This document shows positions 30,572-44,783 of a DNA stretch of 64,000 nt, in pieces (the first letter of the stretch is position 1; each line of letters opens with the position of its first letter). Source of the stretch: Leptonemataceae bacterium (GTDB lineage: Bacteria; Spirochaetota; Leptospiria; Leptospirales; Leptonemataceae); NCBI GenBank assembly GCA_965227295.1, contig OZ245742.1, forward strand, positions 4,512,001-4,576,000, in the 5' to 3' direction. Under the pieces are notes generated by a model that was given only the letters and a program-made list of their open reading frames with translations, was not told where the DNA came from and did no database searches. Both the position numbers and the translations under genes were made by a program.

Positions 30572-31100
30572 ATTAAATAAGATAAAACGAGCCATCATGT
30601 TTCTGCAACGGGAGGATTACTACTTCCTTGCATACAACATCCTTATAATTTTAAATGAACTCAATTGTGTCGAAGGAAAGAGGACCTTCCGGGACCATCG
30701 CAAACTCAGCTTCATAATAGAATTCACATCCAAAGGAAGCCTTGTGGAAATCTTACAGAGGGGGCAATCGAACGGGTCCATAAATCTCAGTGACCGTGAT
30801 AGATTATCACGCAGCTACTCTGTCGGATTGACCAGGATGAACGAGGTGCTAAGAATCACTCTCTTTCTTGCTCACAACGGCATCCTAACTGCGACCAAGC
30901 AAAGAGATGGAACATTTAATTTGAGACTCAATCCCGAGAAGCTACCTTCCGGGTTTCTTCGCTCCGAAGAATTTGCTTATGAGATCTCAAATATCCAATC
31001 TTTTCGGCGCCAAACCAACCGCCTATCAAACCTACTTGCTCGCACCTTTCTGGAACGCACTTATTCAGACAATGGCATCATGATATGGGAAGACTACTGA
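30561..31100 (+). CDS. ABC-three-component middle component (LmuC-like)
   Basis: Small ORF overlapping both neighbours, between nuclease and SMC-like ATPase. Confidence 0.5.
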   Translation: MTPELNKIKRAIMFLQREDYYFLAYNILIILNELNCVEGKRTFRDHRKLSFIIEFTSKGSLVEILQRGQSNGSINLSDRDRLSRSYSVGLTRMNEVLRITLFLAHNGILTATKQRDGTFNLRLNPEKLPSGFLRSEEFAYEISNIQSFRRQTNRLSNLLARTFLERTYSDNGIMIWEDY

Positions 31101-32998
31101 TTGAAAAGCTTAAATACTCTGGCGACTCTTTCGAATATGAATCGCCGACACTTGGACCTGGGATAAATATCCTCGAAGGGGCGAACGCTACGGGAAAGAC
31201 TACTTTCACGAATCTCATATACTATGGACTCGGCGGCCATGTAGAAGAATTCCGCGCGAATGCAAAAGAACGACATGCCGAAATAACCGGAGATAAGAAC
31301 AACTTCGTCGACCTGTTCATCCGAATCAATGAAACGCCATACCAACTTCGTCGTTACATCGGAGATCCGAACATAGGCATCACCCACGAAACAATCACAA
31401 TCACTCGCACTTTGGACCGAAGAGAGTCGAGCGAAACGTTCTCCGACTGGCTACTTGACAAGCTTGGATTCGAAATTTTTGAGATTTTTCAAGGTTCTCA
31501 CAATTGGAGGATCAACTTTACGGACCTCGCTCGCCTAATCTACCATGACCAGAACACTGGCAACGTACGAAGCATATTCAAAGCTCCAGACACATCGTTC
31601 TTCTTGTCCGACTCTGCCAGCACGAGGAAGATAATATTTGAAGTTCTTACAGGAAAGACGTTTAACGATTACTACTCCACTCTTGGCAAGACAAGGCGGG
31701 CCGACCAACAGCGACAGGTGACAAAGGAGACTCTTCGGCGATTTATTGAGATAGCCGCGACACTACACTCTGAGAATCAACCCAAGAACAGCGACTTCAT
31801 TGAAGCCGCGTTACGCGAAAAACAGACTCAGCACGAGAAGTTAGAAGAATCACGACGAGCCCTTCAATCCAACGCACCCCAAGCCGGGGCAGGACTGCGT
31901 CAGCGCATCTCTGAGAAGACGAGTGAATTGACAGCCCAGCAACATAAACGTGTTGAGTTTAACTCCAAGAGATCCAGACAAATAGGGGAAGTTGTCAAAC
32001 TCCGGAATCTTAGAGAAGATCGCATCTTAGAAGCAACTCAGATGCGGAAGATTATCTACTCCCATGACGAACTAAAGCTCTTTTCCCCAAATACTTGCCC
32101 CTACTGCCTTCGAGAAATCGACAGAAACGCCGGTGCGTGCGTCTGTGGGAAGCCTATCAATGAAGAGGACTACGAAAAATTCTTTTACGATCGCGAGGAA
32201 TATCTGGATATCTTGAAGGCGAAGCAAAAGTCCATAGAAACAATTGAGATAGCGATCGAATCAGTATCAAAGGACCTGAAAGCGACGGAGGGGCAACTAA
32301 GAAACATAGATGAATTAATAAAAGGAAGCTCAACCGAAATCGAAAACTTGTCACGAGACATCGAAACGGGAATTGACCTATCTGCATTCAATGAGATTGA
32401 AAACAAGCTTCTGGGAGTCCGCTCTGAAATACAAGACCTACAAAAGGACTTAGAACTCAGAACACAGCAGGACATCATCGAGAAAGAACACGAGGAAAAT
32501 GAAAATGAGTATAAACGACTGCTCGCCGCAAGCAAGAGTTTAGAACTAGAGGCAGCACAGGCCATGGAAGAAATACTTGAAATATTTTCCAAAAAATACA
32601 AGGAACTGATCCGCTCATCTCTGCCAGAAGTAAATACGGCCGCAATTCAAGAGGATTACATGCCTGTCATAGATGGCGGAATATATAAACAAGCAAGCTC
32701 GGCCGTACCACGCCGACTCCTCTATTACTTCGCCCTACTTCACATTTCGCTACAGCATCCTACCGTGCTCTTCCCACGTTTACTGATTATCGACACACCA
32801 GAGAACCTCGGGATAGACTATGACGTATTTATGGACACGCTTCAGGCACTAGAGGCTGTCATCCCCGCCGGCAAAGAAGAACAATATCAAGTAATTCTGT
32901 CCACAGGAGTTAATAAATATCCAGAGTCATATGCAGAGTATGTCTTCGAGAGTCTGTCCACGGACAATCGCCTACTTAAAGAAGTAGGGCCTGAATAG
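31085..32998 (+). CDS. SMC/Rad50-like ABC ATPase (LmuB-like)
   Basis: Walker A GANATGKT, coiled coils with CPYC..CVC hook, Walker B LIIDTP. Confidence 0.8.
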   Translation: MGRLLIEKLKYSGDSFEYESPTLGPGINILEGANATGKTTFTNLIYYGLGGHVEEFRANAKERHAEITGDKNNFVDLFIRINETPYQLRRYIGDPNIGITHETITITRTLDRRESSETFSDWLLDKLGFEIFEIFQGSHNWRINFTDLARLIYHDQNTGNVRSIFKAPDTSFFLSDSASTRKIIFEVLTGKTFNDYYSTLGKTRRADQQRQVTKETLRRFIEIAATLHSENQPKNSDFIEAALREKQTQHEKLEESRRALQSNAPQAGAGLRQRISEKTSELTAQQHKRVEFNSKRSRQIGEVVKLRNLREDRILEATQMRKIIYSHDELKLFSPNTCPYCLREIDRNAGACVCGKPINEEDYEKFFYDREEYLDILKAKQKSIETIEIAIESVSKDLKATEGQLRNIDELIKGSSTEIENLSRDIETGIDLSAFNEIENKLLGVRSEIQDLQKDLELRTQQDIIEKEHEENENEYKRLLAASKSLELEAAQAMEEILEIFSKKYKELIRSSLPEVNTAAIQEDYMPVIDGGIYKQASSAVPRRLLYYFALLHISLQHPTVLFPRLLIIDTPENLGIDYDVFMDTLQALEAVIPAGKEEQYQVILSTGVNKYPESYAEYVFESLSTDNRLLKEVGPE

Positions 32999-33011: not shown

Positions 33012-33746
33012 ACCCGTCTTATCGAAGCGATCGACGGCGCCGTGGCTACGCTTCAATTTACCGGAGCCTACGCCGAACGTCTCGGCCGCCTCTTCGAGGG
33101 GGCGATGACTCAGCAAGCGTCGAATTTCAAATCGGACCAGAAGTATATCCGGTTGAAGTGCGAAAGCCTGGATCAGCAGATCCGGCGGTTATACAGAGAA
33201 TACGCGGCCAGCGAACCAGCCGCCGCGCGGCAGATCATGGAAACCATCCGCGAAATGCAGGATGAAATCAAGACGCTGGAGAAAAAAGGCCAGAGCCTGC
33301 GCGCGGAAGACTTCGAGATCAACAACACCATCCTGCGATACATTGAAGAACTGCGGACGATTCCGGAAAAGTATCTGGCGGCGCGGACCACTGCGGAGAA
33401 AGCGAAACTTCTGCGAAACATGGTGCGCGCGATCTACGTGGACGGCGACGAGGTCATTTTCGACTGGCAAGAGCCGTATGCCTTCCTGGCGGACGAAGGC
33501 ATCTATCTGGCACTCACGAAACCGCGCGGGGGCTGGAAGAGCGGTGGTAAGCTCGCGGCGCAGCGCGCCGCCGCGAGCTTACCACCGCACACCCCGCAAA
33601 TGTCAGGGTGTTCGATTCCGTTTACTTCTGCGGAGCCAGCGAAACGCAGATCGAAAAAGCTGTCCGTGGAAGCGGAGATCGCCGCGCATATCCGGCTGAT
33701 GTTTCGGTTCTGGATGGCCGGCAAGAAACTTGCTGCCCACGGCTGA
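33012..33746 (+). pseudogene. 5'-truncated duplicate of serine recombinase 3' end with alternative (attP-type) C-terminus
   Basis: Identical to 27490-28113 reversed, then continues SAEPAKRRSKK..AAHG* after the CTCCGCAGAA core. Confidence 0.75.
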
Positions 33747-33954: not shown

Positions 33955-34379
33955 GTGGGGCGTGTGGCCACAGAGAACGGACGCGATCAGCGGAGCGATC
34001 ACGGAAAGAACTCACGGAAAGAACTCACGGAAAGAGGGCAAACATCACATGAGATATTGTTAGAGATTAAAGCACCAGGTGCCGCTGAAATCGAGTCCAC
34101 CTGGCAAGAACCCAACTGGATTATATATACGTCAATCGCGGCGACCAAAGACGTCCACGCTAACATATCTCGGCCGAACTCTAACCCCCGCCGCCCAGGT
34201 CGTGTCGTTTTTCTGGACAATCAAGGGAGTTCGAATTTCACGGCCAGCGCCGAGATCCCGCCGCGCACATCGTCGGTAATGCATCTGTGTATTTTGTGTG
34301 CGACGTCACGAAACCGCCGTACATAAATAGCGCGTGCAGGCGAAAACCCACCGGGTCTTCGCCTGCACGCGCGCGAACG

Positions 34380-34712
34380 TCACCAGCTCCAGCCGATTTC
34401 CTTTAACTGCTCCTTTTCTTCGGCTACGTCTTCTAACAGGTGGTCGGCGATCCGTTGCCAGTCCACTTTTTCGATGGCCCCCTGGAGTAACTCGCGCAAC
34501 AGTTCGGGAAGTTCGAGCCTGTGCAGATACTCCCGGTGACGATCTCTCAAGTGCGTGGCGAGTTGTTCTTCCTCGCCGTCACGAACACAATCGCAGGCAA
34601 TGCCCATAAACAAATCGTTGGTCGCCGTGTCTTTGTACATGCGCTCAGACACACACCACGTTTCGTAGTTGCCCCAACCGCAATAGTATTCGTTACTCCT
34701 TCCAGCCGTCAT
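34380..34712 (-). CDS. Hypothetical mobile-element protein (GWxNYETW motif, DUF7249-like), copy A
   Basis: YCGWGNYETWCV..VDWQRIA; third gene of overlapping operon. Confidence 0.6.
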   Translation of the reverse strand: MTAGRSNEYYCGWGNYETWCVSERMYKDTATNDLFMGIACDCVRDGEEEQLATHLRDRHREYLHRLELPELLRELLQGAIEKVDWQRIADHLLEDVAEEKEQLKEIGWSW

Positions 34713-34896
34713 CGCAGAGGACCTTCTCCGGCTCTTTGCCGATCAATTCCCGGAGCGGCGGACGCTTACGCAGGTCCGCCGCAATGAGATTGCGAATGTG
34801 CTGTGCCGTGTTCGCGAAGCGCGTGCGCAATTCGTAGCGCATGTCTTCGCTGATGCCGACCAGATACTGAACTGATTTTCTTCCCGGGTCTTTCAT
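34693..34896 (-). CDS. Small protein, possible ribbon-helix-helix, copy A
   Basis: MKDPGRKSVQYLVGISEDMRYELR..; SD AGGAGG; ATGA overlap. Confidence 0.45.
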   Translation of the reverse strand: MKDPGRKSVQYLVGISEDMRYELRTRFANTAQHIRNLIAADLRKRPPLRELIGKEPEKVLCDDGWKE

Positions 34897-35366
34897 GCTT
34901 CGGCCTCCTGGTCCAGGTCGTCGAAGAGCGGGTAGAAACGAGTGCTTTTCGGCGCTCCCAGGTAACACGCGCGGCGGAGTTCCTGGTCCCACTCGCAAGC
35001 GACCTGTTGAAGTTCGAGAAACACTTCTCGATTTACTTTTAAGAGGGAATTCAGCCGGGACGGCTGCGGTACCTTCACCGGGGTGTAGACCTCTTTGAAT
35101 TCACCGGTAGTTTCACTGGCGAGCAGAAACGGAAACCACTCATTGTCCGCCGTGATTTCGAACTGCATTTCGCGAGCGCACAGCCAGCGGCCGTTTGCTT
35201 GCTTGATGAACTGCGAAACGCCCAGGGCGGGGCGAGCGGTTGGACCCTCTCCCAGAAACTCGATGACGAGCAGCGGGTATTCTTCGTGCTCCACGCGGAT
35301 GGACTCGCACTGCTTGAGCGCTTCCATGCCTTCGTGACTGACGATGATTTTCTGAATTGTTTCCAT
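34893..35366 (-). CDS. Hypothetical mobile-element protein (DUF6908-like), copy A
   Basis: SD GGAGG; LVIEFLGEGP..EMQFEI resembles DUF6908 from recollection. Confidence 0.55.
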   Translation of the reverse strand: METIQKIIVSHEGMEALKQCESIRVEHEEYPLLVIEFLGEGPTARPALGVSQFIKQANGRWLCAREMQFEITADNEWFPFLLASETTGEFKEVYTPVKVPQPSRLNSLLKVNREVFLELQQVACEWDQELRRACYLGAPKSTRFYPLFDDLDQEAEA

Positions 35367-35527
35367 GTGATAGATTCCTCCGGGGGAAGGCTAAACACAC
35401 GGCGGCATACTGCAAGTTTAAACTCAAGGAAAGTTAATTTTTTGCTGACAAAAGCCCGGAGACATGCTAACATCACGAAATGTTACTCTAGTAAATGTCG
35501 ATGCACGAGGTCGCCCGCTTCTCTCTT

Positions 35528-35600
35528 TCAGGGGTGCGGGATTCGAACCCACTTCCCGGGGGACACAGTCCCGGATGTTAGCCGCATACACCAACCCCTA
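35528..35600 (-). tRNA. trnH: tRNA-His(GUG), array 1
   Basis: Loop CT-GTG-TC; GTTCGAATCC; one anticodon-stem mismatch. Confidence 0.75.
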
Positions 35601-35605
35601 TTGAA

Positions 35606-35679
35606 AATCCCGGCGAGGACTCGAACCCCGATCGACGGGGATAGAAGCCCCGTGCTTTTTCCCGTTAAGCTACCGGGAT
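35606..35679 (-). tRNA. trnR: tRNA-Arg(UCU), array 1
   Basis: CGGGG-CTTCTAT-CCCCG anticodon arm. Confidence 0.85.
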
Positions 35680-35682
35680 ACT

Positions 35683-35755
35683 TCGAAGCGGCTGGAATCG
35701 AACCAACACCAACGGCATATCAGAGCGTCGTTCTCAACCGTTAAACTACGCTTCG
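35683..35755 (-). tRNA. trnI: tRNA-Ile(GAU), array 1
   Basis: Loop CT-GAT-AT; acceptor CGAAGCG/CGCTTCG. Confidence 0.8.
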
Positions 35756-35759
35756 TATG

Positions 35760-35830
35760 CACCACGTAGGGGAGTCGAACCCCTGCTACTCGATCGACAA
35801 TCGGGCGTTCTACCGTTAAACTAATGCGGC
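35760..35830 (-). tRNA. trnD: tRNA-Asp(GUC), array 1
   Basis: Loop TT-GTC-GA; G73. Confidence 0.8.
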
Positions 35831-35836
35831 AAACTG

Positions 35837-35910
35837 TAGGGCCCGCGGGACTCGAACCCGCAATCTCCAGATTCGTAATCTGATGCCTTGATCCATTTGG
35901 CCAGGGCCCT
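35837..35910 (-). tRNA. trnR: tRNA-Arg(ACG), array 1
   Basis: TCAGA-TTACGAA-TCTGG. Confidence 0.9.
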
Positions 35911-35913
35911 GTG

Positions 35914-35987
35914 TTGGACTTGCAGGACTCGAACCTGCGGCCTTCCGCCTCGGAAGCGGGTGCTCTTTCCCTCTGAGCTAAAGTCCA
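35914..35987 (-). tRNA. trnR: tRNA-Arg(CCG), array 1
   Basis: CCCGC-TTCCGAG-GCGGA. Confidence 0.85.
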
Positions 35988-35990
35988 GTG

Positions 35991-36061
35991 TGGAGCCGGT
36001 GGGAATCGAACCCACATCTGTTGCTTGCAAAACAAAGATTCTCCCGTTAAACTACGGCCCC
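35991..36061 (-). tRNA. trnA: tRNA-Ala(UGC), array 1
   Basis: Loop TT-TGC-AA; G3:U70 identity pair. Confidence 0.85.
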
Positions 36062-36064
36062 GTG

Positions 36065-36138
36065 TACGGGCTGCTGGATTCGAACCAGCGATCTCCTGTT
36101 TGTAAGACAGGCGTTCTGACCTGCTAAACTAAGCCCGT
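36065..36138 (-). tRNA. trnV: tRNA-Val(UAC), array 1
   Basis: CCTGT-CTTACAA-ACAGG. Confidence 0.9.
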
Positions 36139-36141
36139 GTG

Positions 36142-36213
36142 TTGCGGCGAAAGGAATTGAACCTCCGTAGGACGGGTTATGAGCCCGTTGCATCGCCACT
36201 ATGCTACACCGCA
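36142..36213 (-). tRNA. trnM: tRNA-Met(CAU), initiator-like, array 1
   Basis: ACGGG-CTCATAA-CCCGT with three consecutive G-C pairs; TTCAA T-loop. Confidence 0.85.
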
Positions 36214-36219
36214 ATGTTT

Positions 36220-36294
36220 TGCCCGGTGCATGGATTCGAACCTGCAACCAGCGGTTTACAAAACCGCCGCTCTAACCATTGGAGCTAACCGGGC
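36220..36294 (-). tRNA. trnT: tRNA-Thr(UGU), array 1
   Basis: GCGGT-TTTGTAA-ACCGC. Confidence 0.9.
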
Positions 36295-36297
36295 GTG

Positions 36298-36369
36298 TGC
36301 ATCAGCAGGGAATCGAACCCTGATGATCTGCTTGGAAGACAGACATGTTGGCCGTTACATCACTGATGC
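36298..36369 (-). tRNA. trnG: tRNA-Gly(UCC), array 1
   Basis: TCTGT-CTTCCAA-GCAGA. Confidence 0.85.
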
Positions 36370-36373
36370 GTAT

Positions 36374-36447
36374 TCGTCGGGTTCGGGATCGAACCGAATT
36401 CTCTCGCTTTTCAGGCGAGCGCTCATGACCACACCTGCTCCCCGACG
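36374..36447 (-). tRNA. trnF: tRNA-Phe(GAA), array 1
   Basis: CTCGC-CTGAAAA-GCGAG. Confidence 0.8.
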
Positions 36448-36504
36448 TTCGTCTTGTTCTTCTTAAAGTCACTTTCGCTCATATTTACTCCTTAGTGCGA
36501 AATG

Positions 36505-36576
36505 TGGGTCCGGTGGGATTCGAACCCACGGCCATCCGATTAAAAGTCGGATGCTCTACCCCCGAGCTCCGGACCC
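36505..36576 (-). tRNA. trnK: tRNA-Lys(UUU), array 1
   Basis: TCCGA-CTTTTAA-TCGGA. Confidence 0.9.
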
Positions 36577-36577
36577 G

Positions 36578-36616
36578 CTATTCTCTAAATGTCTTCTTGT
36601 CATCTTCGCTCTTCAT
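36578..36616 (-). CDS. Mini-ORF MKSEDDKKTFRE between tRNA-Gly and tRNA-Lys
   Basis: SD AGGAG; identical peptide in array 2 with synonymous ACA/ACG change. Confidence 0.4.
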   Translation of the reverse strand: MKSEDDKKTFRE

Positions 36617-36641
36617 GGCGTATCTCCTGTTGCTTATGATG

Positions 36642-36714
36642 TGCACCGCAAGAGACTCGAACTCTTCCCTGCTGCATGGCACACAGCTATGCTTGCCACT
36701 AACACCAGCGATGC
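36642..36714 (-). tRNA. trnG: tRNA-Gly(GCC), array 1
   Basis: GCTGT-GTGCCAT-GCAGC. Confidence 0.8.
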
Positions 36715-36723
36715 GTTTAAACG

Positions 36724-36757
36724 AAAAAACCCTCCAGGGAGTCGGCCGGGGAGGGTT
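36724..36757 (-). terminator. Attenuator terminator before 14-tRNA cluster, array 1
   Basis: AACCCTCC..GGAGGGTT stem plus U-tract. Confidence 0.8.
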
Positions 36758-36784
36758 CTTCATGAATGCGTTTGCAGATTCTTC

Positions 36785-36901
36785 TCAGCAACGCATGCGC
36801 AGAACTCCTCCGGCGATCCGGCCGTCCTTATGGCCCGCATCGATCCGCATCCCGATAAATCGGGCGGTTCTCACAACCGTTGCTGTTACTGTTAAGCTCA
36901 T
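36785..36901 (-). CDS. Leader peptide MSLTVTATVVRTARFIGMRIDAGHKDGRIAGGVLRMRC (array 1)
   Basis: 38 codons; residues 4-33 are exclusively amino acids of the downstream tRNAs; 3' part complementary to terminator 5' arm. Confidence 0.75.
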   Translation of the reverse strand: MSLTVTATVVRTARFIGMRIDAGHKDGRIAGGVLRMRC

Positions 36902-36951
36902 GATAGAATACTCAGACGAATCCCTTGTTAAATTTCTTATAAAAATATCTT

Positions 36952-37023
36952 TGCCGACGCAGGGAATCGAAACCTGATTACCGCAGTGAAAGTGCGAGGT
37001 CCTTGCCTTTAGACGACGCCGGC
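36952..37023 (-). tRNA. trnE: tRNA-Glu(UUC), array 1
   Basis: TCGCA-CTTTCAC-TGCGG; T-stem has one mismatch in this copy. Confidence 0.75.
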
Positions 37024-37119
37024 GATTTGAGTTGAAACGTAGTTAGGTCCACGTTCCCGTTCTCGCGGCATCGCTCCAGCTGACACGTATGTACGTCCTG
37101 CGCGGTTCATTATACTATG

Positions 37120-37190
37120 AGACATGGGTGGGATTCGAACCCACGTAAACGGCTTTGCAGACCGCCCGCTGGCCTCTCGCGCACCATGTC
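37120..37190 (-). tRNA. trnC: tRNA-Cys(GCA), array 1
   Basis: GCGGT-CTGCAAA-GCCGT; U73. Confidence 0.8.
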
Positions 37191-37285
37191 GGGTTTACTC
37201 TGGCTTGCGGCGGTCGGTAACATCGTTCTCTGTCTTCCATATCTCCCTCATAACACTTGAAAAATAAGCAAAATGCCCATAAACG

Positions 37286-37319
37286 AAAAAAGGCGAGCCG
37301 TTGATCCGGGCTCGCCTTT
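37286..37319 (-). terminator. Attenuator terminator before Cys/Glu tRNAs, array 1
   Basis: AAAGGCGAGCC..GGCTCGCCTTT plus U-tract. Confidence 0.8.
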
Positions 37320-37343
37320 CGCATCCAGCAGGTTACACTGAAT

Positions 37344-37451
37344 CTAAGACGAGCGCATGACTCCCTGAAACACATCACGCTCACAACCCGCATGAATCAT
37401 GCCGGCCTTCGCGAGGTCTCGTTCCGTTCTATGTTGGCGCTTCGGCGACAT
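37344..37451 (-). CDS. Leader peptide MSPKRQHRTERDLAKAGMIHAGCERDVFQGVMRSS (array 1)
   Basis: 35 codons downstream of a TTGACG -35 box; GCTCGTCTT at 3' end pairs with terminator 5' arm. Confidence 0.55.
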   Translation of the reverse strand: MSPKRQHRTERDLAKAGMIHAGCERDVFQGVMRSS

Positions 37452-37531
37452 TCCGTTTCCTGAATACTTACTTGGTATTCGACGTCAACAACTTCATAAA
37501 GATTTAAATATTTTTTTCATGGAACTCAATG

Positions 37532-37604
37532 TTCCGGGAGATGGATTCGAACCATCAACCCCCGACTTCAAAGGCCGGTGTTCTACCCGTTGAACTACCC
37601 CGGA
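37532..37604 (-). tRNA. trnQ: tRNA-Gln(UUG), array 1
   Basis: CCGGC-CTTTGAA-GTCGG; U1-A72. Confidence 0.85.
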
Positions 37605-37612
37605 ATGAGTTG

Positions 37613-37684
37613 CACCGGAGGCAGGACTCGAACCTGCATAGAACGCATTAACATTGCGTCGCCTTACCATTAGGCTACTCCGGT
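37613..37684 (-). tRNA. trnN: tRNA-Asn(GUU), array 1
   Basis: ACGCA-ATGTTAA-TGCGT; G73. Confidence 0.85.
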
Positions 37685-37688
37685 ATTC

Positions 37689-37766
37689 TGGCAGAGGGAA
37701 CAGGATTCGAACCTGTGAACATCGGATTTGGAGTCCGACAGCTTGGACCGCTCGACTCATCCCTCT
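37689..37766 (-). tRNA. trnW: tRNA-Trp(CCA), array 1
   Basis: TCGGA-CTCCAAA-TCCGA; encoded GCCA end. Confidence 0.85.
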
Positions 37767-37769
37767 ATG

Positions 37770-37842
37770 TCGGCGTGGTGGGACTTGAACCCACGACCCC
37801 CGGTTCCCGAAACCGGTGCTCTACACCCTGAGCTATACGCCG
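37770..37842 (-). tRNA. trnP: tRNA-Pro(CGG), array 1
   Basis: CCGGT-TTCGGGA-ACCGG; C1-G72, A73. Confidence 0.9.
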
Positions 37843-37848
37843 GATAAT

Positions 37849-37882
37849 AAAAAACCCCCTCAAGCTTCCGCCGGAGGGGGTT
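37849..37882 (-). terminator. Attenuator terminator before Pro/Trp/Asn/Gln tRNAs, array 1
   Basis: AACCCCCTC..GAGGGGGTT plus U-tract, ending 7 nt before tRNA-Pro. Confidence 0.85.
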
Positions 37883-37911
37883 CTCGCGCAAACGCGCTGT
37901 TGCTCAGAGCA

Positions 37912-37983
37912 CTACACGACCACCTCCAGGCAGATGCCGGGATTCTGTTGGGGCCAGTTGCTCTGTGGGAAAAACATGCTCAT
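37912..37983 (-). CDS. Leader peptide MSMFFPQSNWPQQNPGICLEVVV (array 1)
   Basis: P/Q/N/W make up 9 of 10 consecutive codons; in-frame 6-nt indel relative to array 2. Confidence 0.8.
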   Translation of the reverse strand: MSMFFPQSNWPQQNPGICLEVVV

Positions 37984-38087
37984 CACGTTTACCTGAAGTT
38001 AAGAGACGACGGTTTTCGAGAAATCCTTAACGAAAATATATTTTTTGGAACGAAAGCTTCGCTTTGCCTCGTCTCATCTACCGTATC

Positions 38088-38156
38088 ATGAACGGTATGT
38101 TACTATCATCGCTGTATCTTCTCAGCTCCGGCGGCATGCGGGAGGCGGCGATGTAG
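38088..38156 (+). CDS. Leader peptide MNGMLLSSLYLLSSGGMREAAM (array 1)
   Basis: Ten consecutive L/S/Y codons, each a different codon; precedes Tyr/Ser/Leu tRNAs. Confidence 0.82.
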   Translation: MNGMLLSSLYLLSSGGMREAAM

Positions 38157-38184
38157 TACGCGCAGACAGTTTTCTGTCTTCGAG

Positions 38185-38224
38185 AAGCCCCTCCCGGTGA
38201 ACCCGCGAGGGGCTTTTTGTTTTT
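38185..38224 (+). terminator. Attenuator terminator before Tyr/Ser/Leu tRNAs, array 1
   Basis: AAGCCCCTC..GAGGGGCTT plus TTTGTTTTT. Confidence 0.85.
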
Positions 38225-38228
38225 AAAC

Positions 38229-38315
38229 GCGCTGCTTTCCTCCTGCCGGTCTGTAAAGCCGGGGTCGTTAAACGAGGAGGTCGGGAGACGAGAGGTTCAA
38301 ATCCTCGGCAGCGCA
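38229..38315 (+). tRNA. trnY: Atypical tRNA-Tyr(GUA)-like gene lacking canonical D-arm, array 1
   Basis: Acceptor GCGCTGC/GCAGCGC, CCGGT-CTGTAAA-GCCGG, GTTCAAATCC; only 10 nt between acceptor and anticodon stems. Confidence 0.65.
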
Positions 38316-38319
38316 TACT

Positions 38320-38403
38320 GGATAGATGCCCGAGTGGTAAGGGACCCGTTTCGAAAACGGAGGTCGGCGGTTCGTCGCGTGGGTTCGATTCCTACTCTAT
38401 CCG
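38320..38403 (+). tRNA. trnS: tRNA-Ser(CGA), array 1
   Basis: Loop TT-CGA-AA; long variable arm; G73. Confidence 0.85.
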
Positions 38404-38409
38404 CATTAC

Positions 38410-38493
38410 GGAGGGATGACCGAGTGGTAAGGTATCCGGTTGGAAGCCGGTGGTCATCGATGAGATGCGAAGGTTCGATTCCTTCTCCCTCCG
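38410..38493 (+). tRNA. trnS: tRNA-Ser(GGA), array 1
   Basis: Loop TT-GGA-AG; long variable arm; G73. Confidence 0.85.
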
Positions 38494-38499
38494 AGAAAT

Positions 38500-38584
38500 G
38501 GAACAGTGGCCGAGAGGTAAGGCAGCGGTCCGCTAAACCGTGGTCGTCGTAACAGACGCGGAGGTTCGATTCCTCCCTGTTCCG
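38500..38584 (+). tRNA. trnS: tRNA-Ser(GCU), array 1
   Basis: GCGGT-CCGCTAA-ACCGT (C33); long variable arm. Confidence 0.85.
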
Positions 38585-38587
38585 CAG

Positions 38588-38662
38588 CGAGCGATAGCCC
38601 AATCAGGCAGAGGCAGTCGACTTAAAATCGGCAGAGTGCGGGTTCGATTCCCGCTCGCTCAA
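38588..38662 (+). tRNA. trnL: tRNA-Leu(UAA), short variable loop, array 1
   Basis: GTCGA-CTTAAAA-TCGGC. Confidence 0.85.
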
Positions 38663-38665
38663 AAC

Positions 38666-38738
38666 GCATCCGTAGCCCAACGGTAGAGGCACCAGGTCGA
38701 GAGCCTGGTCAGTGCAGGTTCGAATCCGGCCGGATGCA
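38666..38738 (+). tRNA. trnL: tRNA-Leu(GAG), short variable loop, array 1
   Basis: CCAGG-TCGAGAG-CCTGG (C33). Confidence 0.75.
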
Positions 38739-38741
38739 CAC

Positions 38742-38814
38742 GGGGACGTAGCCCAACGGCAGAGGCAGCACGCTCAGAACGTGTCCAGTGTGAGTTCGAA
38801 TCTCGCCGCCCCCA
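38742..38814 (+). tRNA. trnL: tRNA-Leu(CAG), short variable loop, array 1
   Basis: GCACG-CTCAGAA-CGTGT. Confidence 0.85.
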
Positions 38815-38985
38815 TAGAGTCTCCACTGAAGAGATTTGCGACCTCGTGCATCGACATTTACTAGAGTAACATTTCGTGATGTTAGCATGTCTCCGGGCTT
38901 TTGTCAGCAAAAAATTAACTTTCCTTGAGTTTAAACTTGCAGTATGCCGCCGTGTGTTTAGCCTTCCCCCGGAGGAATCTATCAC

Positions 38986-39459
38986 ATGGAAACAATTCAG
39001 AAAATCATCGTCAGTCACGAAGGCATGGAAGCGCTCAAGCAGTGCGAGTCCATCCGCGTGGAGCACGAAGAATACCCGCTGCTCGTCATCGAGTTTCTGG
39101 GAGAGGGTCCAACCGCTCGCCCCGCCCTGGGCGTTTCGCAGTTCATCAAGCAAGCAAACGGCCGCTGGCTGTGCGCTCGCGAAATGCAGTTCGAAATCAC
39201 GGCGGACAATGAGTGGTTTCCGTTTCTGCTCGCCAGTGAAACTACCGGTGAATTCAAAGAGGTCTACACCCCGGTGAAGGTACCGCAGCCGTCCCGGCTG
39301 AATTCCCTCTTAAAAGTAAATCGAGAAGTGTTTCTCGAACTTCAACAGGTCGCTTGCGAGTGGGACCAGGAACTCCGCCGCGCGTGTTACCTGGGAGCGC
39401 CGAAAAGCACTCGTTTCTACCCGCTCTTCGACGACCTGGACCAGGAGGCCGAAGCATGA
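38986..39459 (+). CDS. Hypothetical mobile-element protein (DUF6908-like), copy B
   Basis: Identical to 34893-35366. Confidence 0.55.
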   Translation: METIQKIIVSHEGMEALKQCESIRVEHEEYPLLVIEFLGEGPTARPALGVSQFIKQANGRWLCAREMQFEITADNEWFPFLLASETTGEFKEVYTPVKVPQPSRLNSLLKVNREVFLELQQVACEWDQELRRACYLGAPKSTRFYPLFDDLDQEAEA

Positions 39460-39659
39460 AAGACCCGGGAAGAAAATCAGTTCAGTATCTGGTCGGCATC
39501 AGCGAAGACATGCGCTACGAATTGCGCACGCGCTTCGCGAACACGGCACAGCACATTCGCAATCTCATTGCGGCGGACCTGCGTAAGCGTCCGCCGCTCC
39601 GGGAATTGATCGGCAAAGAGCCGGAGAAGGTCCTCTGCGATGACGGCTGGAAGGAGTAA
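39456..39659 (+). CDS. Small protein, possible ribbon-helix-helix, copy B
   Basis: Identical to 34693-34896. Confidence 0.45.
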   Translation: MKDPGRKSVQYLVGISEDMRYELRTRFANTAQHIRNLIAADLRKRPPLRELIGKEPEKVLCDDGWKE

Positions 39660-39972
39660 CGAATACTATTGCGGTTGGGGCAACTACGAAACGTGGTGTG
39701 TGTCTGAGCGCATGTACAAAGACACGGCGACCAACGATTTGTTTATGGGCATTGCCTGCGATTGTGTTCGTGACGGCGAGGAAGAACAACTCGCCACGCA
39801 CTTGAGAGATCGTCACCGGGAGTATCTGCACAGGCTCGAACTTCCCGAACTGTTGCGCGAGTTACTCCAGGGGGCCATCGAAAAAGTGGACTGGCAACGG
39901 ATCGCCGACCACCTGTTAGAAGACGTAGCCGAAGAAAAGGAGCAGTTAAAGGAAATCGGCTGGAGCTGGTGA
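39640..39972 (+). CDS. Hypothetical protein (DUF7249-like), copy B
   Basis: Identical to 34380-34712. Confidence 0.6.
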   Translation: MTAGRSNEYYCGWGNYETWCVSERMYKDTATNDLFMGIACDCVRDGEEEQLATHLRDRHREYLHRLELPELLRELLQGAIEKVDWQRIADHLLEDVAEEKEQLKEIGWSW

Positions 39973-39982
39973 CGTTCGCGCG

Positions 39983-40028
39983 CGTGCAGGCGAAGACCCG
40001 GTGGGTTTTCGCCTGCACGCGCTATTTA
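39983..40028 (+). terminator. Long hairpin after 3-gene operon (mirror copy near 34325-34370)
   Basis: GCGTGCAGGCGAAGACCC..GGGTTTTCGCCTGCACGC followed by TATTTAT. Confidence 0.6.
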
Positions 40029-40316
40029 TGTACGGCGGTTTCGTGACGTCGCACACAAAATACACAGATGCATTACCGACGATGTGCGCGGCGGGATCTC
40101 GGCGCTGGCCGTGAAATTCGAACTCCCTTGATTGTCCAGAAAAACGACACGACCTGGGCGGCGGGGGTTAGAGTTCGGCCGAGATATGTTAGCGTGGACG
40201 TCTTTGGTCGCCGCGATTGACGTATATATAATCCAGTTGGGTTCTTGCCAGGTGGACTCGATTTCAGCGGCACCTGGTGCTTTAATCTCTAACAATATCT
40301 CATGTGATGTTTGCCC

Positions 40317-41328
40317 TCTTTCCGTGAGTTCTTTCCGTGAGTTCTTTCCGTGAGTTCTTTCCGTGAGTTCTTTCCGTGAGTTCTTTCCGTGAGTTCTTTC
40401 CGTGAGTTCTTTCCGTGAGTTCTTTCCGTGAGTTCTTTCCGTGAGTTCTTTCCGTGAGTTCTTTCCGTGAGTTCTTTCCGTGAGTTCTTTCCGTGAGTTC
40501 TTTCCGTGAGTTCTTTCCGTGAGTTCTTTCCGTGAGTTCTTTCCGTGAGTTCTTTCCGTGAGTTCTTTCCGTGAGTTCTTTCCGTGAGTTCTTTCCGTGA
40601 GTTCTTTCCGTGAGTTCTTTCCGTGAGTTCTTTCCGTGAGTTCTTTCCGTGAGTTCTTTCCGTGAGTTCTTTCCGTGAGTTCTTTCCGTGAGTTCTTTCC
40701 GTGAGTTCTTTCCGTGAGTTCTTTCCGTGAGTTCTTTCCGTGAGTTCTTTCCGTGAGTTCTTTCCGTGAGTTCTTTCCGTGAGTTCTTTCCGTGAGTTCT
40801 TTCCGTGAGTTCTTTCCGTGAGTTCTTTCCGTGAGTTCTTTCCGTGAGTTCTTTCCGTGAGTTCTTTCCGTGAGTTCTTTCCGTGAGTTCTTTCCGTGAG
40901 TTCTTTCCGTGAGTTCTTTCCGTGAGTTCTTTCCGTGAGTTCTTTCCGTGAGTTCTTTCCGTGAGTTCTTTCCGTGAGTTCTTTCCGTGAGTTCTTTCCG
41001 TGAGTTCTTTCCGTGAGTTCTTTCCGTGAGTTCTTTCCGTGAGTTCTTTCCGTGAGTTCTTTCCGTGAGTTCTTTCCGTGAGTTCTTTCCGTGAGTTCTT
41101 TCCGTGAGTTCTTTCCGTGAGTTCTTTCCGTGAGTTCTTTCCGTGAGTTCTTTCCGTGAGTTCTTTCCGTGAGTTCTTTCCGTGAGTTCTTTCCGTGAGT
41201 TCTTTCCGTGAGTTCTTTCCGTGAGTTCTTTCCGTGAGTTCTTTCCGTGAGTTCTTTCCGTGAGTTCTTTCCGTGAGTTCTTTCCGTGAGTTCTTTCCGT
41301 GAGTTCTTTCCGTGAGTTCTTTCCGTGA
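40317..41328. repeat. Perfect 13-bp tandem repeat (TCTTTCCGTGAGT), about 78 copies
   Basis: Directly visible; 1012 nt / 13; no spacers. Confidence 0.97.
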
Positions 41329-41356
41329 TCGCTCCGCTGATCGCGTCCGTTCTCTG

Positions 41357-43340
41357 GTCGCGGTAGAACGGCCGGTTGCCCGGCCGCCCCCGCACAGATC
41401 CCGGCGTGCGGTATTCTCGCACCGGGCTCTTCGAAAGCACTCGCTTCCACATAAAGTCAATTCAGAGTAAGTCGCAACTGAGATACTGGTCGTTCCATGA
41501 TGCGCGGTTTTTCGATCCGGTAGTGCGCCATCAGATCCCTCAGCCCCTGCCAGTCCAGACTCCGGCGCTGACTGCGCCGATTGAGCCACTTGTACAGATT
41601 CATTTCCACCTGATAGTAGAAGCTTCGTATACTCTTGTAGTTGCATTGGACGCCATAATAGTTATAGTATCCACGCAGCCGGGAGTTCAGAAGATTGAAG
41701 AACCTGCGCATGGGTAGATGCCGATTCGCTTTAATCCACTGCTTCACATTCTGGATCGACGCATGCAATCGCTTTGGAGCGGTGCGACGCGGAACCCACC
41801 AGAACCCCTTTCGAGAACGAGCCCAGCGGTATTCAAAGCCTAGAAATACGAACGCCTCACGCCCGGTATTGAACTTCGCGCGGAAGCCCGGGCGCTCGAA
41901 ACTTTTCACTCCTGACTTTTCCGGCGCCAGTTCCAGACCAAACTTTCGCAAACGTTTTCCAAGCGTCGCATAGAATTTCAGCGCATCGTCTTTGGATTCA
42001 AAGGCGCAAACAAAATCGTCCGCGTATCGACACATATAGGCCGGTCTCTTGCAGTGCTTCTTCACCACTTTCTCGAACCAGAGGTCCAGTACGTAATGAA
42101 GATAGACGTTCGCCAGAACCGGACTGATCACGCCGCCTTGAGGAGTCCCAGCGGTCGGGCGCGAGACCTGACCGTTTACCTCCAGCACGCCTGCTTTCAG
42201 CCACTTGCGAATCAGACCGAGAAAGGCCCGATCATCGATTCGTTGCTCCAGCATTCGCATCAACCAATCATGGTCAATGTTGTCGAAGAAACCCTTGATG
42301 TCGGCTTCCACAATCCAGCCGAGCTTCCCCGGACTCAAAGTTGAACTCAGAGTCTTCGAAGCCTCACGCGGACCGGTGTTCGGCCGATAACCATACGAAC
42401 ACGACAGGAAGTCTTGCTCATAGATCGCTTCAAGGATACGCGTCGCGCATGTTTGTACCAGTTTGTCTTCGAGGGCCGGCAATCCAAGCGGACGTTGTTT
42501 TCCGTCCGCTTTCGGGATAAAGACCCTGCGAATCAGTTTTGTTCGGTATCGTTTCTGTTTTAAGCGTTCCACCAGATCCCCGACATTTTCCGTAAGGTTC
42601 GCTTCGTAGTCGCGAAACGTTTCACGGTCCACGCCCGGAGCCGCCCGGCGATTCATTCCTGCGAACGAATCTTCGAGATTCATCTGGTTGAGCATCCCAT
42701 ACAGATTACGAAACAGATGTTTCTTACTCCTCCTCGCTTTATTTGCTATTGCCCGTAGTGAGGTTTGCATCAGTTGTTCCGATCCTGCCGTCCGGCTGAT
42801 GTTGACTCTGCGAGCTGCGTACTTTCGTCAGCCCCTTCCCCGATCATCGCGCATCGCACGCGAAGACCGAACCCGTCGAAACTCCATTCGAGTTTCATTC
42901 GATTCTGTGGACGGCTCTCCCGCCCTCTGAGTACTATGGGCTGATCCGACTCCCCGTTGATCATCATTCTTCCTTGTTCATTCGGTCAGAATTACCTTCG
43001 CTATCGTCGAAGGAACCAACGGGGTCTCCCGGGTTCCACGATGTTTCTCTGCATACATGCCGCGCTCAAGCGACCCCGACAGACCTCCAGAATCTCGCTA
43101 AAACGATTCCTTTGTGCTGGTTTCCATCTGACCAATGATGTCACCGTCTGCATCTATGGCATTTTACGAGGCTCAACAGCTTCCGGGAGTGTGGACTCCC
43201 CTACGGCCTGCATGCTTCCCTGTGTACGCTTCGTGTGGCGGTTACCCGCTTCCACGCAACACTCGGTAGAAGTTGTTCGCTAAACTTTACTTCATATGGA
43301 CTTTCACCTTATCAGAAACATCGGGCTTTGCCCGGCGCAC
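41357..43340 (-). mobile_element. Group II intron, 1984 nt
   Basis: 5' GTGCG at 43340; domain V GAGCCCGGTGCGAGAATACCGCACGCCGGGATC; 3' ..CTACCGCGAC; exons rejoin to TGGCCA|CAGAGAAC seen intact at 33965-33978. Confidence 0.95.
41457..42770 (-). CDS. ltrA: Group II intron reverse transcriptase/maturase without endonuclease domain
   Basis: IPKADGKQRPLG, SYGYRP, EADIKGFFD, PQGG, RYADD, FLGF, domain X LRGYYNYY; no C-terminal HNH. Confidence 0.95.
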   Translation of the reverse strand: MQTSLRAIANKARRSKKHLFRNLYGMLNQMNLEDSFAGMNRRAAPGVDRETFRDYEANLTENVGDLVERLKQKRYRTKLIRRVFIPKADGKQRPLGLPALEDKLVQTCATRILEAIYEQDFLSCSYGYRPNTGPREASKTLSSTLSPGKLGWIVEADIKGFFDNIDHDWLMRMLEQRIDDRAFLGLIRKWLKAGVLEVNGQVSRPTAGTPQGGVISPVLANVYLHYVLDLWFEKVVKKHCKRPAYMCRYADDFVCAFESKDDALKFYATLGKRLRKFGLELAPEKSGVKSFERPGFRAKFNTGREAFVFLGFEYRWARSRKGFWWVPRRTAPKRLHASIQNVKQWIKANRHLPMRRFFNLLNSRLRGYYNYYGVQCNYKSIRSFYYQVEMNLYKWLNRRSQRRSLDWQGLRDLMAHYRIEKPRIMERPVSQLRLTLN

Positions 43341-43681: not shown

Positions 43682-43799
43682 ACATGGCGGCATATTACAA
43701 GTTTAAACTCAAGGAAAGTTAATTTTTTGCTGACAAAATCCTGGAGACATGCTAACATCACGCAATGTTACTCTAGTAAATGTCGATGCACGAGATCGC
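43682..43799. repeat. ~118-bp inverted repeat flanking array 2 (partner ~47543-47660), homologous to inner ends of array 1 arms
   Basis: AAGTTTAAACTCAAGGAAAGTTAATTTTTTGCTGACAAAA..GTTACTCTAGTAAAT present at all four array ends. Confidence 0.85.
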
Positions 43800-43822
43800 A
43801 AATCTCTTCAATGGAGACTATA

Positions 43823-43955
43823 TGGGGACGGTGAGACTCGAACTCACACTAGACACGTTCTGAGCGTGCTGCCTCTACCGCGAATGTAAGCAGTTGCTCC
43901 CGGGTGGTCGCAACTGCGGCGGTTCAGACTGCTTCGCAGTCTGGGCTACGGATGC
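43823..43955 (-). pseudogene. trnL: Chimeric tRNA-Leu (5' end of GAG gene, body of CAG gene) with ~61-nt D-loop insertion, array 2
   Basis: GCATCCGTAGCCCA + insert 43881-43941 + CGGTAGAGGCAGCACGCTCAGAA..CGTCCCCA; acceptor strands do not match. Confidence 0.8.
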
Positions 43956-43958
43956 GTT

Positions 43959-44033
43959 TCGAGCGAGCGGGAATCGAACCCGCACTCTGCCGATTTTAAG
44001 TCGACTGCCTCTGCCTGATTGGGCTATCGCTCG
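43959..44033 (-). tRNA. trnL: tRNA-Leu(UAA), array 2
   Basis: Near-identical to 38588-38662. Confidence 0.85.
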
Positions 44034-44036
44034 CTG

Positions 44037-44121
44037 CGGAACAGGGAGGAATCGAACCTCCGCGTCTGTTACGACGACCACGGTTTAGCGGACCGCTGCC
44101 TTACCTCTCGGCCACTGTTCC
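44037..44121 (-). tRNA. trnS: tRNA-Ser(GCU), array 2
   Basis: Matches 38500-38584. Confidence 0.85.
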
Positions 44122-44127
44122 AATTTC

Positions 44128-44212
44128 CGGAGGGAGAAGGAATCGAACCTTCGCGCCTGTTAAGACGACCGCCGGCTTCCAACCGGATACCTTACCACTC
44201 GGTCATCCCTCC
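44128..44212 (-). tRNA. trnS: tRNA-Ser(GGA), array 2
   Basis: Matches 38410-38493 with different variable arm. Confidence 0.85.
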
Positions 44213-44218
44213 ACGCTG

Positions 44219-44302
44219 CGGATAGAGTAGGAATCGAACCCACGCGACGAACCGCCGACCTCCGTTTTCGAAACGGGTCCCTTACCACTCGGGCATCTAT
44301 CC
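44219..44302 (-). tRNA. trnS: tRNA-Ser(CGA), array 2
   Basis: Matches 38320-38403. Confidence 0.85.
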
Positions 44303-44306
44303 AGTA

Positions 44307-44443
44307 TGCGCTGCCGAGGATTTGAACCTCTCGTCACCCGACCTCCTCGTTTAACGAGTAAACTGTACCTTGCTGCGCAAGCCTTGACTTACTACCGCCT
44401 TTCAGTTGCTGGCGTTTACAGACCGGCAGGAGGAAAGCAGCGC
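44307..44443 (-). pseudogene. trnY: Atypical tRNA-Tyr(GUA) interrupted by ~55-nt insertion, array 2
   Basis: Matches 38229-38315 except extra sequence ~44358-44413 at 3' side of anticodon stem. Confidence 0.7.
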
Positions 44444-44447
44444 GTTT

Positions 44448-44487: not shown

Positions 44488-44515
44488 CTCGAAGACAGAG
44501 AACTGTCCGCGCGTA

Positions 44516-44754: not shown

Positions 44755-44783
44755 TGCTCTGAGCAACAGCGCGTTTGCGCGAG

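Follow-up and report, generated by a model that had tools for sequence, protein, structure and literature searches.

A tRNA array on a Leptonemataceae genomic island appears to be divided into four operons controlled by leader-peptide attenuators

An array of tRNA genes in a Leptonemataceae bacterium (GenBank assembly GCA_965227295.1) probably consists of four operons, each under the control of a ribosome-mediated transcription attenuator. The array (array 1, positions 35528-38814) lies in a stretch of 64,000 nucleotides, here called the window (contig OZ245742.1, positions 4,512,001 to 4,576,000, forward strand), and every one of its four units stands behind an open reading frame (ORF) of 22 to 38 codons, followed by a hairpin and a U-tract. 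Control of this kind had been proposed in a reading of the letters alone (the original prediction), and what speaks for it, all read off or computed from the sequences, is the ORFs and terminators themselves, the complementarity between the end of each ORF and its terminator, the match of leader codons to downstream tRNAs, the lack of space for separate promoters, and conservation in a second genome, a metagenome-assembled genome labelled Leptospirales (L010).

We propose that each leader would work as follows. The operon promoter would lie so near the short ORF that hardly any of the message precedes the start codon, with the terminator 26 to 31 nt past the ORF stop and, in three of the four units, the first tRNA within a few bases of it. 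The last codons of the ORF would pair with the 5′ arm of the terminator to give an antiterminator. A ribosome that reaches the stop codon would cover the antiterminator segment, the terminator would form and no tRNA would be made; a ribosome stalled earlier, on codons of the downstream tRNAs, would leave the segment free, the antiterminator would form during transcription and the tRNAs would be made. Such feedback would be driven by demand, a unit being on when its own codons are decoded slowly and off when they are decoded fast.

RESULTS

The tRNA genes of array 1 fall into four units

Of the 42 tRNA genes that ARAGORN called in the window, 26 belong to array 1, 15 belong to a second array (array 2) and one is a host tRNA-Ser(cga) at 27409-27495. 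The genes of array 1, 20 on the minus strand and 6 on the plus strand, serve 19 amino acids. The original prediction had counted 27 genes for all 20; the 27th is an atypical RNA with a tyrosine anticodon loop (the Tyr-like RNA; Table 1), called neither by ARAGORN nor by the Rfam tRNA model. The Tyr-like RNA has no standard D arm, a long helix standing in its place, and when it is aligned with its L010 homologue, 27 predicted pairs are kept, 4 of them through compensatory changes. The Rfam model matched 25 of the 26 called genes at E ≤ 0.1, the miss being Gly-gcc (36641-36714). The three genes called Leu (window 38588-38814; L010 10857-11087) are 73 to 75 nt long and are without the long variable arm of bacterial tRNA-Leu. 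With 26 genes in 3.3 kb, array 1 is a tRNA array unit as defined in the abstract of PMC4758250 (at least 20 tRNA genes at a density of at least 2 per kb). The division into four groups, each with a short ORF and then an intrinsic terminator, was found as predicted in all four cases; we refer to the leader ORFs as L1 to L4 and to their terminators as T1 to T4.

Leader codons match the tRNAs downstream

Short ORFs of 15 to 60 codons, 529 from the window outside the arrays and 5654 from 32 fetched loci, served as background for the codon content of the leaders. L1 contains 10 consecutive Leu/Ser/Tyr codons, L2 contains a stretch in which 9 of 10 codons are for Pro, Gln, Asn or Trp, and L4 contains 30 consecutive codons drawn from the 11 amino acids of its unit; each of these was equalled by 0/529 and 0/5654 background ORFs. 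The run of 7 cognate codons in L2 was matched by 1/529 and 0/5654. The cognate runs of L010 were 8 codons in L1, 5 in L2 and 15 in L4 and were matched by 1, 13 and 12, respectively, of the 5654 ORFs. When 338 short ORFs upstream of tRNA runs from 33 sources were ranked blind, the top five were window L2, window L1 (in both arrays), window L4 and L010 L1, and no leader of any other array in that ranking came close to those of the window and L010. A codon readable by the tRNA is present in its own leader for 26 of the 27 window tRNAs (the miss is Pro-cgg) and for 23 of 25 in L010, and all 14 anticodons of unit 4 have a codon in window L4.

The idea that the leaders are marked by rare codons was considered and rejected, as their mean synonymous fraction is only slightly under the host-like expectation (0.31-0.45 versus 0.36-0.48). 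Among the control codons, TTA (0.06), CTA (0.02) and AGA (0.01) are seldom used by the host genes on the flanks.

Terminators leave little room for other promoters

An intrinsic terminator lies between leader ORF and tRNAs in every unit of array 1 (4/4), array 2 (4/4) and L010 (4/4). The hairpins, at −13.9 to −21.3 kcal/mol, are followed by T5 to T7, and the distance from stop codon to terminator is 26 to 29 nt in array 1 and 29 to 31 nt in the L010 leaders. We defined these terminators by our own RNA folding in place of a consensus scanner, which flagged none of the leader terminators and no promoter ahead of the leaders; it appears to have missed the hairpins because their loops are longer than its 8-nt limit. 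The original prediction had named promoters downstream of the terminators as evidence that would count against it. In the L1, L2 and L4 units, the first tRNA begins 3 to 9 nt past the U-tract, which leaves no space for a separate promoter, and the tRNAs of these units would therefore be made only by read-through. A promoter-like TTGACG-16-TATTCA ends 9 nt ahead of L3, and TTGAC-16-TATTCA is found 9 to 10 nt before the ATG in both genomes. The promoters and start codons of the leaders are predicted ones, and those of window L4 are ambiguous.

The end of each leader ORF is predicted to compete for the terminator 5′ arm

For each leader, the ORF end (the last nine codons plus the stop codon) was shuffled 1000 times with dinucleotide content kept, and pairing of the true ORF end with the terminator 5′ arm was compared with that of the shuffles. 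The p values were 0.027, 0.002, 0.08 and 0.034 for window L1 to L4 (about 1e-4 when combined by Fisher's method) and 0.007, 0.034, 0.002 and 0.035 for L010 L1 to L4. The duplex thus exceeded its shuffles in 8/8 leaders (p 0.002-0.08), and the complementarity that the original prediction had seen in every leader of the array was borne out in 4/4.

When full-length leaders were folded at equilibrium with a ribosome placed at successive positions, the probability (P) of the window L4 terminator was at most 0.34 with the ribosome at codons 2 to 26 and at least 0.93 from codon 27 to the stop; window L2 switched over codons 4 to 10, and L010 L4 switched in part. Since an equilibrium switch was seen only for these three leaders, we used nascent transcripts cut just before the 3′ arm of the terminator, the state in which the decision must fall. 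With the ribosome upstream, the 5′ arm of the nascent transcript was predicted to pair with the 3′ end of the ORF in 8/8 leaders (P 0.62-1.0; 0.70-1.0 for the four of the window), and a ribosome in the last 6 to 10 codons lowered that pairing, the lowest value per leader being 0.05 to 0.50. The modelling therefore predicts, for all eight leaders, an antiterminator that excludes the terminator and is masked by a ribosome at the end of the ORF, and the release of the 5′ arm agrees with what the original prediction expected of the two states. In every spacer, the antiterminator encloses a small hairpin. A 1:2 helix, in which the control codons pair with the antiterminator segment, is predicted for three leaders, the L1 of the window, the L1 of L010 and the L010 L2; because of this helix, an untranslated leader is also predicted to terminate, as in trp.

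Within L4, the +1 frame contains a 26-codon ORF in both genomes (window 36840-36760, minus strand; L010 8814-8734, minus strand), the stop codon of which lies 0 to 2 nt ahead of the terminator 5′ arm. It may be a product of chance or a frameshift route to antitermination.

A second genome has the same leaders in a rearranged array

A scan of genome contigs for the gene order Trp-then-Asn, by means of anticodon-loop and T-loop motifs, returned 32 loci, of which L010, on a 6.44-Mb contig, alone had a related array; the other 31 were unrelated arrays, none with cognate leaders. Local gene orders in L010 are those of the window (Pro-Trp-Asn-Gln; Ser ×3-Leu ×3; Lys-Phe-Gly...Thr-Met-Val-Ala-Arg-Asp-Ile-Arg-His), at 74 to 83% nucleotide identity for the tRNA blocks and 64% for the integrase. 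The units are arranged differently on the two strands, and each retains its own leader. Further relatives were sought through the flanking gene, which encodes a DUF6908 protein and has mirrored DUF6908-like counterparts on both sides of the L010 array: as a marker it gave 3 proteins, all on one 5.94-Mb contig, and a scan of genome contigs matched 82 stretches, of which 0 were confirmed as related islands. In blastn searches of phages and plasmids, the window and L010 arrays matched no more than 6% of their length, and these matches were of a generic tRNA kind.

Despite nucleotide identities of 60 to 80%, the leader frame is free of stop codons in 8/8 leaders of the window and L010, and the one indel between the two window arrays (6 nt, in L2) is in frame, as the original prediction would have it for translated leaders. 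In L1, 7 of the 9 codons that differ between window and L010 are changed nonsynonymously, and Leu/Ser/Tyr codons still make up 10/22 in both. From the sequences, what is conserved in the leaders is amino-acid composition, not the peptide. The blocks conserved in the alignments are the control codons, the antiterminator segment, the terminator stems, the U-tract and the promoter-like site of L3. The original prediction had also suggested a check of whether leader codons covary with tRNA content, and this was found for two of the four differences between window and L010. Ile(tat) occurs in L010 along with two ATA codons in its L4, the window being without both the tRNA and the codons; conversely, Arg(ccg) and two CGG codons in L4 are present in the window and missing from L010. 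The differences in Gly(gcc) and Cys are not mirrored.

Two other features of the L010 array were noted. The 268 nt between Gly(tcc) and Thr (8085-8351) resemble a tRNA at both ends, enclose an insert of ~200 nt and gave no match in Rfam. At the end of the array (11099-11180), there is a tRNA-Sec-like match under threshold (34.3 bits; cutoff, 47), the 3′ part of which is repeated in the inverted repeat on the opposite side of the array.

The second array of the window

Array 2 (43959-47530) has only 15 of about 27 tRNA genes called intact by ARAGORN. All four leaders are present, as the original prediction had it. Because arrays 1 and 2 differ by only 7 to 9 substitutions per leader region, plus the 6-nt L2 indel, array 2 is weak as independent evidence. 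In the terminators, the loops have changed and the stems have not, and an insert of ~50 nt lies in the Tyr-like gene of the L1 region. These differences are weakly suggestive of a leader that is translated and structured.

Five copies of a two-hairpin insert, each ~55 nt, lie in the T-loops of the array-2 Trp, Cys, Gly(tcc), Val and Arg(ccg) genes. Three stem pairs covary among the five copies. The rest of the window, array 1 included, and the 32 loci had no further copy, and no Rfam family matched; the insert could be a mobile element that targets tRNA genes, or else a small intron. Other inserts interrupt further array-2 genes, and those in the Lys, Tyr-like and Trp genes have a short motif in common.

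Short ORFs in the spacers within operons

Each long spacer inside an operon contains a short ORF that ends at or within the next tRNA (Lys, Phe, Glu and Cys). Three of the four are conserved in L010, with N-terminal residues in common (L010 8665-8636, from 8536 and from 9103). GGAGG precedes the L010 copy of the Glu ORF, and the window copy has no Shine-Dalgarno motif. The cognate specificity of the spacer ORFs is weak, the window Lys and Phe ORFs each containing both Lys and Phe codons. They may gate tRNA maturation through translation.

The island around the arrays

The arrays lie in a stretch of ~50% GC (from about 28 kb to about 50 kb in the window) within flanks of ~62% GC, and at its boundary a serine integrase adjoins the host tRNA-Ser. 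A carboxylase encoded in the flanks has only 50 to 55% identity to proteins of diverse phyla. The Ser(cga) of array 1 is unlike the host Ser(cga) and like that of L010. In GC content, Ser(cga) likeness and integrase, array 1 has the marks of horizontal acquisition of tRNA arrays. A Lamassu-type defence system stands between the integrase and the arrays (Table 1), and the L010 island encodes a 937-amino-acid HD-CE and ATPase protein, such that the array adjoins defence genes in both genomes.

Array 1 is bracketed by perfect inverted repeats of 1516 nt (33999-35514 and 38838-40353) with DUF6908 genes inside, and a second perfect pair, of 623 nt (27490-28112 and 33013-33635), duplicates the 3′ part of the integrase gene; the inverted repeats could reflect an invertible segment, gene conversion or an assembly effect. 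Two more DUF6908 paralogs (76% and 86% identical) lie on the same 5.94-Mb contig outside the window, and there may be further arrays elsewhere in that genome. Between array 1 and a group II intron lies a tandem repeat (~40161-41460) with a 13-nt period and ~100 copies, mostly identical. The intron has a reverse transcriptase/maturase ORF at 41457-42770 on the minus strand (Pfam RVT_1, 7.7e-33; GIIM) and RNA domains D1-D4 at 43063-43304 on the minus strand (Rfam, 130.7 bits).

Table 1. Features of the tRNA arrays and their surroundings. Positions are those of the window; dots mark peptides or orders given in part, and other peptides run to the stop codon.
Feature	Position	Strand	Description
Leader ORF L1	38088-38156	+	22 codons; MNGMLLSSLYLLSSGGMREAAM; codons 5-14 all Leu/Ser/Tyr
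Terminator T1	38181-38226	+	Hairpin and U-tract; 5′ arm predicted to pair with L1 codons 17-22 in the nascent transcript
Tyr-like RNA	38229-38316	+	tRNA-like; GUA anticodon loop; starts ~3 nt past T1
tRNA unit 1	38320-38814	+	Ser(cga), Ser(gga), Ser(gct), Leu(taa), Leu(gag), Leu(cag) (ARAGORN); preceded by Tyr-like RNA
Leader ORF L2	37983-37912	-	23 codons; MSMFFPQSNWPQQNPGICLEVVV
Terminator T2	37846-37885	-	Own folding
tRNA unit 2	37531-37842	-	Pro(cgg), Trp, Asn, Gln(ttg) (ARAGORN)
Leader ORF L3	37451-37344	-	35 codons, or 18 from an inner ATG at 37400; MSPKRQHRTERDLAKAGMIHAGCERDVFQGVMRSS; adjacent Cys-Glu codons
Terminator T3	37285-37320	-	Own folding
tRNA unit 3	36952-37190	-	Cys(gca), Glu(ttc), with a 95-nt spacer between (ARAGORN)
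Leader ORF L4	36901-36785	-	38 codons; MSLTVTATVVRTARFIGMRIDAGHKDGRIAGGVLRMRC; codons 4-33 without exception for one of the 11 unit-4 amino acids
Terminator T4	36722-36760	-	Own folding; clearest predicted switch
tRNA unit 4	35528-36714	-	Gly(gcc), Lys, Phe, Gly(tcc), Thr, Met, Val, Ala, Arg(ccg), Arg(acg), Asp, Ile, Arg(tct), His (ARAGORN)
Short ORF before Lys	36578-36616	-	MKSEDDKKTFRE; Shine-Dalgarno; ends 1 nt ahead of tRNA-Lys; conserved in L010
Short ORF before Phe	36423-36482	-	MSESDFKKNK...; Shine-Dalgarno; overlaps first 25 nt of tRNA-Phe; N-terminus conserved in L010
Short ORF before Glu	37009-37110	-	MNRAGRTYVSAGAMPRERE...; runs into tRNA-Glu; conserved in L010
Short ORF over Cys	37115-37240	-	41 codons; Shine-Dalgarno; spans whole tRNA-Cys; stop 5 nt before start of Glu ORF
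L010 L1			MNGKLLSSLSLYGSSNMREVAM; 55/69 nucleotides identical to window ORF
L010 L2			MIRYSLQSFWPQNNLSSGNTREVVV; 47/78 nucleotides identical to window ORF
L010 L3			MQLNGIHRFDLAKKAPEMQHNCERISFAGRPYSP; 69/108 nucleotides identical to window ORF
L010 L4			MNTMRKINAVITAAAQLRAKHFDAGHKIAGFVQGDSIT; 71/117 nucleotides identical to window ORF
Array-2 L1 copy	44516-44584	-	ORF identical; terminator 44446-44491
Array-2 L2 copy	44689-44754	+	21 codons; in-frame 6-nt difference; terminator 44781-44820
Array-2 L3 copy	45375-45482	+	4 amino-acid changes in codons 3-8; terminator 45506-45541
Array-2 L4 copy	45977-46093	+	2 changes, both synonymous; terminator 46118-46156
T-loop insert cores	44974-45010, 45707-45743, 46626-46662, 46908-46944, 47112-47148	tRNA sense strand	
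Other array-2 inserts	43820-43958, ~44345-44400, ~45185-45290, 46302-46419, 47319-47430		In Leu(gag/cag), Tyr-like, Gln, Lys and Ile, respectively
Lamassu-type defence system	29324-32998	+	Between integrase and arrays; PADLOC: LmuA 2.2e-19, LmuC 0.0022, LmuB 2.7e-53

DISCUSSION

Attenuation of the trp/his type, as first proposed from the letters, is supported by the geometry computed for 4/4 leaders of array 1 and their four L010 homologues, together with the stop-free frames. It supposes that the leaders are translated, that translation is coupled to transcription and that something in nature slows decoding. Several observations weigh against it. The system is present in only two genomes, and as the window arrays are near-identical and the leaders of window and L010 homologous, their counts cannot be taken as independent trials. 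No clear Shine-Dalgarno motif precedes the leader ORFs, and window L4 starts only 3 nt past the best −10-like hexamer. At full-length equilibrium, the terminator prevails (P ≥ 0.86 at every ribosome position) in 5/8 leaders (window L1 and L3; L010 L1-L3), and the switch would therefore have to be kinetic and cotranscriptional. Several tRNAs of the array look aberrant (the 73- to 75-nt Leu genes, the Tyr-like RNA, and the Gly(gcc) gene under the Rfam threshold). The match of codon runs to downstream tRNAs claimed in the original prediction holds for L1, L2 and L4 and fails for L3, where the one signal, neighbouring Cys and Glu codons 12 codons short of the stop, is no better than chance (54/529 background ORFs). 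Neither genome's leader has a CCG codon for tRNA-Pro(cgg), and the L010 leader has no CTG codon for tRNA-Leu(cag). L010 lacks Gly(gcc) and yet keeps one GGC codon (the window has two), and it lacks tRNA-Cys and yet keeps the Cys codon of L3.

The main rival explanation is that the leaders sense the general speed of translation, as affected by ribosome-targeting antibiotics or global stress, and not the shortage of particular tRNAs, in which case the codon match would mean little. A long tRNA array of Anabaena is induced >100-fold by chemically unrelated ribosome inhibitors, according to the main text of PMC8421152. Within the leaders, L4 samples 11 amino acids, L3 has no specific signal, and some codons, among them CTA and TCA of L1 and CCA/CCC of L2, have no tRNA in the array to decode them. 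However, a general sensor would need no partition of tRNAs among leaders, and a matrix of leaders against tRNA groups has a dominant diagonal for L1 and L4 of both genomes and for window L2 (for L010 L2, the own group ties for highest); codon content also tracks the gain and loss of Ile(tat) and Arg(ccg). We therefore regard a general sensor as unlikely, if worth keeping in mind.

A still less probable alternative is that the leader RNAs work without translation, either because the codon runs bind anticodons directly, as a T-box-like "specifier array", or because the hairpins are constitutive terminators or insulators of silent arrays. The missing Shine-Dalgarno motifs and the great stability of the terminators at equilibrium would suit such RNAs, and long arrays are reported in the abstract of PMC8421152 to be poorly transcribed. 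Set against this, the cognate codons are contiguous in a single ATG-started frame that is open in 8/8 leaders, with the indel between arrays in frame, and the stop codon keeps a fixed distance of 26 to 31 nt from the terminator; direct pairing would have no need of any of these features. Neither the T-box covariance model nor any other Rfam family matched the leaders of array 1 (35300-39000) or L010 (7000-11400) at E ≤ 0.1 or those of array 2 (43700-47700) at E ≤ 1. That the ORFs encode small functional peptides, for instance, membrane-active ones, beside tRNA genes by accident can be all but set aside: the L1 peptide is hydrophobic and the ORFs are kept in two genomes, but the peptides are poorly conserved (7/9 changed L1 codons being nonsynonymous) whereas composition and RNA pairing are kept, and all four ORFs end on the antiterminator segment.

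Under ribosome-mediated attenuation, the trigger that we favour is the loss or shortage of tRNA, or excess demand for it, and not amino-acid starvation, since additional tRNA would be of use only where tRNA itself is limiting. More tentatively, and with doubts that outweigh our confidence, the island could be read as a self-regulating tRNA reserve with two tiers of ribosome sensing, which, when phages or competitors attack, would make good the tRNAs lost to anticodon nucleases, each amino-acid group separately. In the first tier, the four attenuators would open whole operons upon slow decoding of their own codons; in the second, a ribosome passing through a spacer ORF would block folding and processing of the tRNA, and a stall upstream would permit its maturation.

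Leader-peptide transcription attenuators control the amino-acid operons trp, his, leu, thr and pheA and, through the pheM leader, pheST in enterobacteria. Those described here are like these enterobacterial attenuators in having an ORF with control codons, an intrinsic terminator, an antiterminator that uses the ribosome-covered end of the ORF and, in some leaders, a 1:2 helix. They are unlike them in that tRNAs and not enzymes or synthetases are controlled, that up to 11 amino acids are represented in one leader, that they sit on a mobile island, and that the leaders, with no Shine-Dalgarno motif, seem to begin right at the transcript's 5′ end or close to it, and that they belong to no Rfam leader family. 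Attenuators of this kind are described in general terms in the abstract of PMC1183508. To our knowledge, all leader-peptide attenuators described so far control genes for amino-acid biosynthesis or aminoacyl-tRNA synthetases, and it is because the controlled genes here are tRNAs that the array is set apart from the attenuator families already described. Rfam searches with the leaders, the Tyr-like RNA and the T-loop inserts matched no family.

Other systems resemble parts of this one. T-box riboswitches also read tRNA status and decide terminator read-through ahead of translation-related genes, but they bind a single uncharged tRNA directly and have no ORF, whereas the leaders described here have an ORF and no T-box match. 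In mycobacteria, leaderless short ORFs rich in cysteine codons are cysteine-responsive attenuators, according to the abstract of bioRxiv 10.1101/834739; like the leaders proposed here, these polycysteine ORFs are leaderless and short, and their codon runs report the supply of charged tRNA and set downstream expression, but they read a single amino acid and precede protein-coding operons, not tRNA genes. The Anabaena array of PMC8421152 is likewise a horizontally acquired set of >20 supernumerary tRNA genes, which, as its main text reports, is silent until translation is impaired; it is a single operon, thought to be repressed at its promoter via direct repeats, whereas the array described here has four units with a leader ORF and a terminator apiece, and the strings "attenuat-," "leader" and "terminator" do not occur in that main text. 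Among the main texts of a full-text library with few subscription journals, we found no prior description linking tRNA arrays or operons to leader peptides or attenuators. Leader-peptide attenuation of tRNA genes would be a new form of a known mechanism.

The regulation of individual bacterial tRNA genes is described as largely unknown in the main text of PMC8421152. If our reading is correct, classical leader-peptide attenuation has been turned on tRNA genes themselves, such that the speed of decoding feeds back to tRNA supply, partitioned by amino acid, in a compact design that could also be used to sense how much of one particular tRNA is present. Such control would also connect tRNA arrays with defence islands, as seen in the Lamassu system of the window and the HD-CE/ATPase protein of L010, and it would supply a regulatory logic for why acquired tRNA arrays stay silent and when they come on.

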